DNA of 61,443 nt, the filler included. It is 9 parts of 9 records of this genome, joined end to end, with 100 filler letters (N's around TTAATTAATTAA, not from the genome) between each part and the next. Parts side by side here need not be neighbours in the genome. Positions count along the whole stretch, not along the records: positions 29,869 to 35,399 come from SRR31147125_91639; 8 more parts are not named here. One strand, given 5' to 3'. Below, piece after piece: positions 29,869 through 35,399 of this stretch. The first letter of the stretch is position 1; each line of letters begins with the position of its first letter. The notes beneath the pieces were generated by a model. It worked only from the letters and a program-made list of their open reading frames with translations, was not told where the DNA came from and did no database searches. Position numbers and translations under genes: made by a program.

Positions 29869-29898
29869 CTGGTTCTGGTTCTGGTTCTGGTTCTGGTT
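29869..29898. repeat. (CTGGTT)5 microsatellite at contig end
   Basis: Five exact hexamer copies. Confidence 0.95.
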
Positions 29899-29940
29899 AT
29901 GTAACGAAGAGTCAGAAACCATCCTCCTCCTCCTTTCCTC

Positions 29941-32900
29941 TCAACATACGATGCCTTGAACAAGGGTATCACCCACTCGTCTTAAAACCTCTAGCATCTC
30001 TTTCTACGAACGTGATGGTAAGAAAGGCACAAGAGGATCGATCTCACACACCTGGGTTTTGTTGTGACCATCTTCCAGAGGTGATGAGTTCCCAGAAGTG
30101 TTCTTCTGTCGCTTTTTGCATCGCTTCTTCTGTAATCGTCGTTTCCTTCGTCGACACAAACACAAAGTTATCTTTCCAAGACAACAGAGAAGGATGGCTG
30201 CGGGGACTGCAACGACAAGGGAAGTAGAAAGAAAGGCTCCCTGCAGCACACATGGGGTCACGATAAGAGCAGGCGACAATAAGTGGATAGATGAGCTACC
30301 ATGAACGTAGGTTCCGTATCGTGAAGACCCGTGTAGTTATTCCCTTGTACTTGACTTCCACACCACACGAATTCTTCTTCAAGATAACTGATGTCTTGTT
30401 CGGGGTCCGTTGCCCATCCTTCCTCACACACACACCTACCAGAGCAGAGTGGATCAATTCTCACCTCCATCACCATCATCACGTACTGTAAGTCCTCTTG
30501 ACTCATTGTTCCATGCCCCGAGCAGTTTTTCTGTATCCAACAAATCACGTACAGCGGTTTCTCACATTCGACCCGCACACACCAATGACTCCTTCCAGGT
30601 ATCAACAACATCAGAAGAAACACCCGTTGTGTTTTCACGATCCGCATCTCCACACGTAGAACACGTGGGTTCAATGATGGGAGGAGGGAAGTTGAAGGGG
30701 AGGCGTCCGTGCGACACTCATTTAGCTGATCGTCATACCAAGTCTGCCATTACACAAAAGGTGAAAAACGGAAGGATGATTTGACCCAAACATACTCCTT
30801 CGGAACAGACGGGCACTCCTTCGCACATACCCCTAGCAGCCTGCAGTGCAAGAATAAGCGATACATCACTCAGTCATCCAGCGCACATTGTAGATGCTCT
30901 TCTCGCCCGCGTATTTCGTGAAACAGTTGGCATTATCTCCCCTGCACACCTTACTCTCCGAGTCATACCACTGGTACCGATGGTGGTGAGGGGGAAGGAG
31001 CGGTCGTGGGTTAATGAATCCATCACACCTGATCTTTTGTGCATGGAGGTTGGCAAAATCGTTGGCTACCTCGAATCACAACCGTATTGGGGGGATCACA
31101 TGTCGGATTCTCCCCTAATGCGTACACGTAGGTCAGTGTGGCTGGGACGAGTTTCTTCGCTACAACGGTACCATTGATCTCCGATTCTCCCGGTCCCCCT
31201 TGGTACGTTTCAGGTGTTGTATCAAAGTCTGTACGAATCGATGCATCAATTTTTCCGTGTTGCTTCACATCAAAGAGACAGAATCCGGTTCTATCCAAGA
31301 AATTCTTGCACATTCTCGTGTGAGTGGGTGTGAAGGCACTACCCACCCCGACACCCTGTGCACCGTGGACTTGATTGAGAAGTAGAACCGTTTCGTACTC
31401 AGGATCGAAACCGAATTCGAGACAGGAGGTGAGATGTACAAACTCTGAAAGGGGGCTGTGTGGGTCACACTCAACAACAAGAAACGTTTCGTACTGAGCA
31501 GTCATATGAACTACTTGTTTTGTCTTGCAAACAGCATGACGTGGGTTCAACGGTGAAGATCCCCGTGAAGTTTCCAACATTGGCTACATCAACATCTGCA
31601 TCGCCGTCTTACAATCCGAGACTGCTGTGTACGCTTCACCCAATTCGCACAGAGTACTCCTTCTGTAGTGTCTGGGACCAAGGGAAGGATACCGGAATCC
31701 TGGCATTGCACTGGGTGAGAAGTCTGGAATCGGTCGTAATTCATGAATAAACGAACAAGCACATGTGGGATCCCGAAGATCTTCATGATACGGAAGTACG
31801 AAGCGTCCAGTTCCAAGATACACGAGCTAATTCTCTGTTTCCAATTTGAGAGGAGAGAAATTCGTTTGAGAGAGAGGTGCTGGGAGTACCTTGTTGGGGC
31901 CCACGTGTGATTCACTTCCGTCTTCGTTTTCACAACGAATCACCTGCCGCACACACTCCATTATGGTAGACTCATGCATACATAGGCATACCTGACGTTC
32001 CCAGCTAATGCTACTCGATTCTGGTGCGATATAGCAACGTCCAATGCCCGGTTGTTCCCTTCTTAATAATTCACACCATGTTGATGCAAGTGTGTTGCCT
32101 CGAAACTCGGAGAACTGATCCCAGCTGTGTAAGGTGTCAAGGAATGCATAACTGCCGATTCCATTTCTCATAGTAGTAAGATACGGACTCCCGCCATCCA
32201 CTCGGATGTATGTGCCATACGGCACCTGACAGTACGTAACTGATGGTGCATTGGTGTCAGAAAGAGGATCCATCACACTTCACCCTCGCAACACACGAGA
32301 AAGGAACATGTCCTCTGTGATCCCAATCTTCATGATTCCCGGGCCTACCTCCTCGGCGGGTACGAGAAATCCTTCATCCTCTTCCACTCCTTGCTGCACA
32401 GCAACGTAGTTCGCATCTTATATATCATGAGAACTTGTTTGATGCCTTGATACGTTCGTTACACACCTACACCCAAACGCCATTCTTCCGTGGATGTTTG
32501 CATTGTCAAGTACGCCTGGAAATGATTGGGAAATCTCTTCTCCCCTCCAGCTGCAAAGTACTTACCGTCATCCCTGGAAGGGATGCCTCGTGTACAATGT
32601 CGTTCAGGGCCACATCACGAACGGTAGATCCCTGTACCGCCGTCACAACCAGATCGAACTGTACAAGTGGGGGAGTGTCGCAACGATTGGCACCGTGTTG
32701 TTTCTCACATGCCTTACCTTTGCAGTCATCTTCCAGATCGAATGCAGATCGTAGATTGTCTCATTGTGTCGTAGTTGACGCCATTCTTTCATTCTACCAC
32801 TCCGCAAGTCAGATGAAACACACAGACACATAGCAACGAACCCGGTGTGAGGGTTCAAACAACATACAGCATCCGCGGGGCACAGATGCTGGTACACGCT

Positions 32901-33474
32901 GTGAAATAGTTTGCATTTCAGACAAGGCAGACAAGGATCCAAGAAGATGCACTACGTACGCGGTCACCGATTCGTAGGCATTCTGTACCGTCCCCTCGTA
33001 ATGAAGGGAAACTTCTGTGTTGAGCAGTGGTGTAAAACGGTTCAACGACCGTATTCGTACCGGCATACCCCAGCGTGGATTCTCTGTGGTCACTGAGATG
33101 ATCAAGTCCTCTTCAGGGGCCCACACACCACCATCCTCGTCTGTGAGTAGGGAATCTGCGAGTTTCTTCTCAATTCCAGTTGTTGCTGTTTTCCTTTCGC
33201 TCACCTGCAGAGATGCGTGTGACGAGGGCCCAGTTATCTGCTTCGGTATTCTGAAAGAACCATGCCATTAACCTGGGGGTGCATTGGTCGTCGGGGCTAC
33301 CAAAGAGGTGGATAGAGTGAGGCTGGAGGGTGGTTGACCGAATACGCACTCCTCTCACCTCCCCGATAAGTCACACGCTTCCACGTTTGCCACAAAGACG
33401 AGTGTGGTCGTAGGAACGAATCGGCATGCAAGAAGAAGAAGAAGAAGAAGGAGCACGCGAAAGGATATCCACAT
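29941..33474 (-). CDS. HAP2: Multi-exon eukaryotic gene: divergent HAP2/GCS1-like class II fusogen (fusexin)
   Basis: Manual splicing of GT-AG introns (e.g. 33297-33358, 33156-33204, 33015-33068, 32899-32959) gives, in HAP2 order: signal peptide; VEACDLSGSPDDQCTPRL; IISVTTENPRWEVSLHYEGTVQNAYE; TGFVAMCLC..DLR; LRHNETIYDLHSI; KIGITEDMF (KIG at 32322-32330); YCQVPYG; ILELDASYF; DVDVANVGNFTGIFTV; FCLFDVK..DFDTT; EGF-like CSGHG..CVCEEGW; TM LVVAVPAAILLCCL; basic tail; stop at 29941-29943. Confidence 0.72.
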
Positions 33475-33639
33475 CCTTGACAAACCCCACGGGCGAGAAT
33501 TCAAAAAGAGAGAGAAAGAGGAAGAGAGGGAGAGAGAAAGGCGCCTAGGACTATTCTGTGGATGATGGAGTGTATTAGCGGTAAGTTGTCGGTCGTTGTC
33601 CGGTGGGATCAACCAACCAATCACAGGGAATGGTTTCGT

Positions 33640-35399
33640 TTATTCTCGAATGGCATTTGATTCCACGAGAGCGAAGGTGATAAGCGTGCCGGTTGCTGCA
33701 CCAATCTGTACGGGTGCGGAATGAGTCCTTGTGGTACAGAATGGGTCCTTTCATCGTTCACCTGGTTAAAAAGTCCCACCCAACGCGACACTTGTTGTGG
33801 CTCTGGCAAGATTCGGGCCACTTGGTATACCATCGTATTCACATAGCCGAAGGTGAACGTGAACAAAAAGTTAACTGTGCCACAGAAGACATGAGCGCGT
33901 CCATACCCCACACAACACTCCAGCTTGCACTACACACGGGGTACAACCACCCAGCCATGCGATCCCAGTGGACACTTTCGTCCCCCAAAACTCAGAAAAA
34001 CCAAGGATACCCACAAGGAACACTAGGTCTGGTGTCAACTCAGACTCATTTCCCTGAGAGTCATACCAGTGGGATCATAAAAGGCGCGAGCCGTCTTACG
34101 CGAAGTGCTTCGATCCCTGTGATCAATCGTCCAATTCCCTCGCCAATCATTCCCATCACTCCTGCCCACAGAAGGAGTGTATCCCCCCGTGGGTATGGTT
34201 TCACGGCATAAGGAATCAGGCCTGTCATGCCATAGTTGAGTGAGGCGCACAAGAACTGGAGTGGAAAGAGTGAAGGCTGTTCTGAAAAGGGGCTGTACGC
34301 GCGCGGATATTGCCAATAAGGAGTACAGACCATCGACGCTTTCCATGAAGAATGTCTCGACACAAGGATGGTTTCTCGTCCTGTGCAACCCACGACACCA
34401 ATAAAGGAACGCAGAAACAACAACCCCACGACGAACCGTGCTGCCAACATTCACAAGAAGAGGATCATCGTCCTTTAGGATCGAAATGGGAGTAAGGATA
34501 TCCCAGCCAAGAGACACAACACCCATCCTACCTCCGGGCGTGCATCCAAGACCGTAGGGGGTGGGGGTGTTTGTGGAGTATGTACTCGAAGGATCAGGGC
34601 CGACAGGAATCCCAATGCAGTCAAACAGGCAATAGGAAGGAAAAAAAGGGTAACAGAGAAACGGGGATGAGCGCCAGCGTTTTGGGCAAGCGCCAGAAAT
34701 TGAGAGATGAGTCCGTTCCATCCTACACCGTGCGCGTTATGTCCGTCCCAACACTTTTCAGTGTTATCCAACGACGCACCCATCCCGGATGAGACAGCCG
34801 CTGTGATTGAGGAGGGAAACGCCGCCACGAACGGGAACAAGGTCGTTGTACTCATACAGCCCACAGCACCCGATGCGAATGTAAGAAGGATCAAGATCAC
34901 ACTGGAACACGATCAGGAAGATCTTGACGTTACTCCCCTGCTGTGTACCTTCGTTGTGATCTGTGAATCGTAACAGTGGAGTTCCAGAAGAGTCCTAGGA
35001 AGATTGCGATGAAGGGTGCGGGGAACAGGGTTGCTGCCACAAACGATCCCGGAGCGGCGTAGCGGTGGAGCCCCAAGACCACAAAACACAACGGGAAGAC
35101 ATTTGCGGCCTGAACACTCAGTGCCAAGATAGAAGCGATGCCACAGCCCTCCGGCAGACGTTCCACAAAGACAGGAATTTCCGCGAACGTTGCTGTGATG
35201 AGAAGCCACGGAGTCAATCCCACAAGAACAAACATGGCGAGTTCCCATCGTTTTCCACGCGGTCTGTGTGCATGTCAGGTGGACCATTTAAAGTCTTTTT
35301 CACACACTTGTTTCGGTGTAGAAGCGGTGTATCCACATCTGGAACATGAGGAGGTGGAGGGGTGGCAGCGGTGGTGGTGGTGGTGATGGTGGTGATGGT
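33640..35399 (-). CDS. Multi-exon eukaryotic gene: SLC52/RFT-like riboflavin transporter (5' truncated)
   Basis: GLTPWLLITATFAEIPVFVERLPEG, GCMSTTTLFPF, GMGWNGLISQFLALAQ, PYAVKPY, FGYVNT, NQIGAATG; introns 35264-35307, 34902-34948, 34723-34779, 33706-33761 and others. Confidence 0.8.
35371..35399. repeat. TGG/TGA trinucleotide microsatellite at contig end
   Basis: gtggtggtggtggtgatggtggtgatggt. Confidence 0.85.

Follow-up and report, generated by a model that had tools for sequence, protein, structure and literature searches.

HAP2/GCS1 (PF10699), a class II fusion protein (three beta-rich domains, trimeric hairpin) with an Ig-like domain III ahead of its stem, gamete-specific expression and fusion activity, is a single-pass type I membrane protein with an N-terminal signal peptide, a Cys-rich ectodomain and, after its transmembrane (TM) helix, a Cys cluster and a basic tail. 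In the parts of PMC5332557 on which we draw, the family is described by a signature in the ij loop (C.KIGV....F..Q...C......CL..Q) with disulfides and a strictly conserved Gln, by 16 conserved ectodomain cysteines in a signature distribution, and by a conserved Glu on strand b together with a basic cd-loop residue that is followed by a Cys (E126, R185 and C190 in Chlamydomonas). Here, we analysed a stretch of 61,443 nt (the window), which consists of nine contigs joined by eight N..TTAATTAATTAA..N spacers and is not one continuous genome segment. One of its contigs, SRR31147125_91639 (29869-35399, 5531 bp), carries on the minus strand a candidate gene (30004-33474) that an original prediction, made by a model from the letters alone, had assigned to a divergent HAP2/GCS1.

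The candidate resembles HAP2/GCS1 in its single-pass type I topology and N-terminal signal peptide, in an ectodomain that is rich in Cys and, up to the stem, similar in length, in the Cys cluster and basic tail after the TM helix, in a stretch similar to the first and last domain III strands, and in a KIG[IV]....F string. In contrast, it has no PF10699 match among its ORF fragments and read-throughs, whereas 10/10 real HAP2 open reading frames (ORFs) tested match at 309-409 bits; its similarity in domains I and II is at null level, the conserved Cys framework is not reproduced, the signature is without Cys, Q and CL..Q, and its domain-III-like part is separated from the TM helix by ~250 aa of additional sequence that is Cys-rich and EGF-like. 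Taking the evidence below together, we hold with moderate confidence that the locus is a nuclear gene of an unsampled microbial eukaryote encoding a lineage-specific, Cys-rich type I surface glycoprotein that is not demonstrably HAP2/GCS1.

With a GTNNG donor, an [ACT]AG acceptor and introns of 40-105 nt, the minus strand holds a stop-free path with 12 introns from the ATG at 33474 to 30100. The same rules gave no stop-free path on the opposite strand and none in dinucleotide shuffles (0/100), whose median reach was 258 nt. Because the 12-intron path exists on the real strand and neither on the opposite strand nor in any shuffle, the minus-strand gene is real; it is a genuine, intron-rich spliced gene. 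The GTNNG rule was adopted because four introns of the neighbouring SLC52 gene and the clear introns of the candidate all have a G at position +5. Without the +5 G rule, the real strand has a path with 11 introns, and 70 of 100 shuffles have one that needs 14-22 introns. Parts of the contig were present in two public runs only (X1 and X2), both from one sample and neither of them listed as RNA. Contigs of run X2, which is without cover over 30054-34308 and so provides direct splice evidence for the neighbouring gene only, skip segments of 56, 59, 57 and 44 nt in the SLC52 gene (spliced joints at 34381-34436, 34473-34531, 34723-34779 and 35264-35307, 44-59 nt). Each is GT..AG on the minus strand, with ends reading GTTCGT..CAG, GTAGGA..AAG, GTGCGT..TAG and GTGTGT..CAG. 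The 12-intron path, its absence from all 100 shuffles and the skipped segments in the neighbour thus bear out the earlier claim that short GT-AG introns split the gene. Run X2 is labelled 'DNA?', yet shows RNA-like behaviour on this contig.

Single ORFs are not significant on their own, as shuffling the contig by mononucleotides gives a longest ORF of 142 codons on average and 217 at most, and the ORFs of 150-186 codons in the locus are within this reach. A reading without any gene, in which the ORFs and splice sites are chance features, can draw on this observation; with the spliced path in 0/100 shuffles and a neighbouring gene that is spliced likewise, we regard it as highly improbable. Use of TAG as a sense codon was also considered, since frame 0 is open from 32279 to 31026 save for two TAGs. 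It was rejected because the resulting 418-codon frame is within the shuffle range (maximum 449) and same-frame exons explain the stretch.

In the simplest of our dynamic-programming models, the gene runs on the minus strand, as do all its features below, from the ATG at 33474 to a TAG stop at 30006-30004. The spliced product has ~845-885 aa depending on the model, and an alternative last intron (30051-30004) would shift the stop to 29941. Models that minimised intron count or intron length merged clear introns and were replaced. Exon 1 (33359-33474), identified by translation and hydropathy, contains the start and a poly-Leu signal peptide, and opens a C-x9-C pair whose second Cys is in exon 2. 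Intron 1 (33297-33358, 62 nt, GTGAGA..TAG) is the sole way to join the frames and was picked by every model. It is followed by intron 2 (33141-33204, 64 nt, GTGAGC..CAG), for which the models also allow an in-frame alternative acceptor at 33156 (49 nt), and by intron 3 (32899-32959, 61 nt, GTACGT..CAG), placed by the models. Introns 4 (32659-32717, 59 nt, GTAAGG..CAG) and 5 (32516-32565, 50 nt, GTAAGT..CAG) were defined by model and sequence reading. For intron 6 (32394-32470, 77 nt, GTAGGT..CAG; models), an alternative at 32466-32417 has an AAG acceptor, and intron 7 (32240-32296, 57 nt, in frame, GTGTGT..CAG), which parts KIGITEDMFLS from (L)TYCQVPYG, has the sole GTNNG donor fitting the downstream frame. 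Each of introns 1-7 restores an open frame. In the downstream half, the longest ORF (31026-31583, 186 codons stop to stop in the ORF listing) includes the FDTT block and is rich in Cys towards its end (..TCDPPNTVVIRGSQRFCQPPC), an EGF-like module (C.GHG..C.CEEGW..; 30300-30530) is split by an intron at 30486-30436 (51 nt, GTACGT..TAG), and the last exon (30004-30240; models, hydropathy) encodes the TM helix, a juxtamembrane Cys cluster, a polybasic tail and the stop.

The gene model is not unique, and its middle is ambiguous. Over 31445-31991 three frames are open in turn, and the sequence does not single out one exon-intron structure. The GTNNG rule allows 360 paths from anchor 32018 to anchor 31442; ILELDA is on 270 of them and VANVGNFTGIFTV on none. 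Without the +5 G rule, VANVGNFTGIFTV is on 688 of 5794 paths between the same anchors. A normal 55-nt intron gives access to this block from upstream, and leaving it requires either a donor that lacks the +5 G or a 1-nt error within an A4 run. Codon usage is too uniform to decide between frames. An in-frame, stop-free 48-nt candidate intron (31944-31991, GTATGC..CAG) is also found in this part.

The contig as given has at least one frame-changing difference: a run X1 contig (depth 4) has an extra G behind base 30685, in a G run, an indel discrepancy to which no strand is assigned. The extra G changes the frame such that ..NECRTDASPSTS continues into PPPIIEPTCSTCGDADRENTTGVSSDVVDTWKESL, and the continuation PPPIIEPTCSTCGDADRENTTG.. 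is more protein-like. This difference, the repeated frame changes over 31991-31445 without clear introns and the weak codon-usage contrast between frames are what would be expected of a decaying or mis-assembled copy, be it a pseudogene or several indel errors in the contig, from which no single intact protein could be derived in the sequence as given. We consider such a copy improbable, as 12 ordinary introns give a complete stop-free path of a kind that no shuffle yields, the eight X1 pieces listed (~1.8 kb) contain one difference only, and neither the start nor the signal peptide, TM helix or stop is damaged.

The signal peptide (KD19 2.24, residues 2-20) and the TM helix (KD19 2.39, residues 791-809 in model B) occupy the top two ranks in hydrophobicity among the 19-residue windows of the spliced product, and the tail after the TM helix reads CC..C.C RRRKRR..KKRCKKRQK. 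Hydropathy and tail sequence thereby agree with the original prediction of a type I membrane protein with TM helix, Cys and basic tail. This topology with a Cys-rich, basic start of the cytoplasmic part fits HAP2, but is common to many unrelated proteins. The product contains 41 Cys in all, ~34 of them in the ectodomain, and 7 N-x-S/T sequons. On this architecture, the poly-Leu signal peptide would direct the chain into the endoplasmic reticulum, where the ectodomain of ~765 aa, with its cysteines and sequons, would fold into disulfide-braced modules, including a putative beta-sandwich-like stretch and the membrane-proximal EGF-like module. The single TM helix would anchor the protein, and the juxtamembrane Cys cluster (palmitoylation candidates) and the polybasic tail would be located at the inner leaflet. 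Adhesion or recognition at the cell surface would be the most likely role of the protein.

In its membrane-proximal C.GHG..C.C..GW, Cys-rich extracellular region and single TM helix, the candidate is similar to EGF-module-bearing type I surface proteins. It differs from them in that its Pfam EGF matches are sub-threshold (fragment 30258-30749: EGF_Teneurin E 0.0026, 18.2 bits with a cut-off of 24.3; EGF_2 11.1 bits with a cut-off of 22.1) and that the rest of the ectodomain fits no family. A HMMER scan of 1.84 billion representatives with the 186-aa ORF yielded no true relative and two matches only, to an insect-allergen repeat protein and a PKD-repeat protein, both of which were dismissed as repeat artefacts (per-repeat ~24 bits, E ~0.01). 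Word-seeded sequence searches found no relatives, a metagenome scan matched 80 pattern stretches of which none was confirmed as a related locus, and an ESM Atlas search gave no usable match. As far as these sequence searches reach, the locus is without detectable relatives. Structure prediction of the 186-aa ORF, the longest exon, alone with AF2 resulted in a pLDDT of 34.7 and was unusable.

The assignment to HAP2 had been based on at least eight motif blocks found in HAP2 order. The strings themselves exist: KIGITEDMF (32330-32304), CQVPYG (32231-32214), ILELDA (31819-31802), FDTT (31226-31215), LHYEGTVQNAYE (33006-32971) and VANVGNFTGIFTV (31587-31549) are all present. Four of the literal patterns (LR...Y...I, V.N.G...F.V, C...F.TT and L.Y...V..YE) have no match as written, and the blocks lie in three frames. 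As they were read from three frames picked by their likeness to HAP2, the choice of blocks is circular. Of the HAP2 signature, the candidate has only KIGI....F, with Ile in place of Cys before the K and without a Gln at F+3. After splicing, a single Cys comes next at F+6; GSCL is replaced by GTYI, and there is no N-Q. Moreover, MKIGITEDMF and a second site, RNGIGSYAF, compete for the same signature columns. Only 4-6 of the 16 conserved Cys columns are matched, compared to a mean of 6.6-6.8 for residue shuffles, 119-143 of 150 of which reach the observed number. Likewise, among 43 columns conserved in at least 15/16 sequences, the candidate matches 13-17 and shuffles 14.6 on average. NAYE and SSDLRSG, proposed as the salt-bridge pair, occur in the right order; from the CC pair to the following Cys pair there is neither R nor K, the Arg is not followed by a Cys, and the alignment in this part is not significant.

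We obtained HAP2 reference loci with a degenerate DNA pattern for a HAP2 signature motif, which returned at least 119 metagenome loci; the set was thus obtained via the canonical motif and represents canonical HAP2 only. Among the 119 loci listed, the extended C..CL..Q motif is present in 80, and ORFs of 578-846 aa without introns in 21. The reference loci include plant-type, intron-rich ones and several protist lineages, and the work thereby provides a usable metagenomic collection of real HAP2 loci. From 16 non-redundant ORFs we built our own HAP2 hidden Markov model (HMM) of 640 columns and, likewise, an alignment (A1).

While the HAP2 Pfam domain of 2017 is described in PMC5332557, as far as the parts used here go, as a ~50-residue segment, PF10699.14 has 515 positions across the ectodomain (gathering score 27.4 bits), and negative exon-wise scans therefore weigh more than with the older domain. 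The Pfam HAP2-GCS1 search suggested along with the original prediction was negative: PF10699 gave no match at E<=10 in 20 stop-to-stop fragments and three read-throughs with X at stops, which are not the spliced protein and one of which spans 464 residues from the KIG region to the end of the longest ORF. In contrast, the SLC52 neighbour was detected by Pfam exon by exon. With our own HMM and filters off, five spliced models (of six built) scored 5.2-5.7 bits, 4.0 bits of which came from the TM helix and tail, and 5.7 bits were reached by 1/2000 shuffles; held-out HAP2 ORFs scored 230-443 bits (8/8). The candidate was left unaligned by hmmalign. PDB sequence searches with five queries found no HAP2 chain, and the best match was follistatin (E 0.037). 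This likeness to follistatin/Kazal domains arises if the 48-nt candidate intron 31991-31944 is retained, such that RCYIAPESSSISWERQVCLC..ECVRQVIRC aligns to follistatin; it is set off by the borderline E-value, one Kazal Cys that is missing in the candidate and the lack of a Pfam Kazal match.

Comparison of the candidate with HAP2 by hhalign gave short matches only (P 0.04-0.26), the top one non-collinear, and P=0.66 for the KIG region against the HAP2 alignment. A 45-aa open-frame fragment matched the first domain III strands with P=0.0017 (probability 15%). As this is one of 116 ORF fragments in the region (both strands), the value fails correction. The best match of the 186-aa ORF was to a non-collinear part of HAP2 (P=0.0091), so that the same residues align as well or better out of place. 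Here, ..ENPTCDPPNTVVIRGSQRFCQPPC (31080-31026, minus strand) resembles the HAP2 domain II motif TCGW..I..SQGFCC.C, but stands after the domain-III-like part and hence out of order, and this likeness makes the noise level of such short matches visible. Profile, signature element and Cys framework do not demonstrate the divergent HAP2/GCS1 identity that had been proposed.

To compare unspliced DNA with the family directly, the HAP2 profile was aligned to DNA with codon matches, gaps and GT..AG jumps, using parameters that were fixed before results were seen. Intron-split HAP2 loci outside the HMM (11/11) scored 119-302 bits on the gene strand and 15.6-21.5 bits on the other strand, demonstrating that the test parts true intron-split HAP2 genes from background (~16-21 bits). 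Several observations made with this and related alignments weigh against our favoured reading. The candidate contains a domain-III-like chain of 28.1 bits, a score reached by 0/300 dinucleotide shuffles (18.6 +- 2.0, maximum 27.9), 0/38 strand-windows of real flanking sequence (19.3 +- 2.3, maximum 25.4) and 0/22 bacterial strand-windows (18.8 +- 1.8, maximum 22.7). Among 70 real strand-windows of a larger set, the highest domain III score was 27.4 bits; it came from a window that is located on the gene strand downstream of a plant-type HAP2 locus and probably contains true exons of HAP2, and the same explanation applies to the one whole-profile value of 63.7 among the 70. In addition, weak likenesses to the HAP2 consensus follow one another in HAP2 order, namely C-x9-C after the signal peptide, LR.NE..Y.L..I, FLVP, KIGI....F, LELDAS, G.L.V.V.N.G..T..F.V..T.C and FDTT.ET. 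In protein-level profile-global alignment, the path of the original prediction has z=3.7 versus residue shuffles (1/300) and z=2.3-3.0 versus block shuffles (0-5/250).

These observations would be accounted for by a class II fusogen of HAP2/GCS1 type that has diverged very far in an unsampled protist lineage. It would have kept the order of its parts (signal peptide, domains I/II, Ig-like domain III, stem, TM helix, Cys/basic tail), with this order and domain III still faintly recognisable, have lost most canonical disulfides along with its PF10699 signature, and have acquired a stem that is rich in Cys and bears an EGF-like module. In line with this, the stretch most similar to the first strands of HAP2 domain III (31549-31608, DGDADVDVANVGNFTGIFTV, open frame) contributes 20.4 bits in the profile-to-DNA alignment, and the alignment EGVL|YVDVANVG stays in register across the predicted 55-nt GTGCGA..CAG intron. 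With the collinear blocks, models A and F reach z=3.7-4.1 versus residue shuffles, and a fusogen would fit the type I topology and Cys/basic tail as well. We nevertheless judge a divergent fusogen unlikely. The 28.1 bits come wholly from domain III and stem columns (for columns 401-545 alone, shuffles score 16.2+-1.6 and 0/200 reach 28.1), and the candidate's domain III score is half or less of that of true HAP2 loci, which have 52-80 bits in domain III and 105-227 bits in domains I/II (12/12). Domains I/II, the best-conserved part of HAP2, are at null level in the candidate, with 19.7 bits reached by 42/200 shuffles and the best match misplaced in the EGF-like region. The missing signature residues, a Cys framework no better than that of shuffles, the absence of a PF10699 match and the competing NGIGSYAF site likewise argue against it.

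The domain-III-like score, moreover, requires a frame to which splicing gives little access: the block is on 0/360 GTNNG paths and needs an unusual donor or the postulated 1-nt assembly error. With harsher gap penalties, the candidate score drops to 23.5 bits, which is reached by 1/70 real strand-windows for the domain III columns and by 3/70 for the whole profile. The outcome of the profile-global alignment also varies with the path. A model with the postulated 1-nt error has z=4.1 versus residue shuffles (0/300) and z=2.6-3.1 versus block shuffles, the parsimonious path z=2.7 (4/300) and only z=1.5-1.6, respectively, and the frame-0 path z=2.0 versus residue shuffles (10/300). The z-values from residue shuffles cover the whole ectodomain, and block shuffles keep local features; for columns 31-400 alone, z=2.4-2.9 versus residue shuffles falls to only 1.1-1.8 versus block shuffles.

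A true HAP2 at this locus would be a marker of sex or cell fusion in the uncultured protist that carries it. It would also enlarge the range of known eukaryotic fusexin sequences and illustrate how strongly a class II fusogen may diverge from the signature of its family. The analysis offers no independent support for the cryptic sex proposed in the original prediction. On the present evidence, the comparison illustrates that motifs matched over three frames can give a convincing-looking, statistically weak family assignment.

The neighbouring gene (33650-35300, minus strand) encodes an SLC52-type riboflavin transporter (PF06237, E 4.9e-11) and sits ~170 nt upstream of the candidate gene. Fragment 34930-35274 scores 42.7 bits with PF06237 (gathering cut-off 27.9) and a second fragment 18.6 bits. 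One of its four introns skipped in run X2 ends in an AAG acceptor.

With short ORFs only, GT-AG introns and the eukaryote-specific SLC52 gene, contig 29869-35399 (no strand assigned) is the only eukaryote-like one in the window. The eight remaining contigs have long uninterrupted bacterial-type ORFs in an ORF listing of the whole stretch, and the G+C of these bacterial-looking contigs ranges from ~0.38 to 0.57. The bin is therefore probably a mixture of bacteria plus eukaryotic contamination, and sharing it is uninformative on any association between the protist and the bacteria. Eukaryotic contigs occur within bacterial bins, where their genes escape prokaryotic gene callers. At the end of the eukaryotic contig (29869-29898) lies a (CTGGTT)n microsatellite with a very high summed depth of 136 and 1764 in the two runs, a repeat that is probably common to other organisms or repeats.

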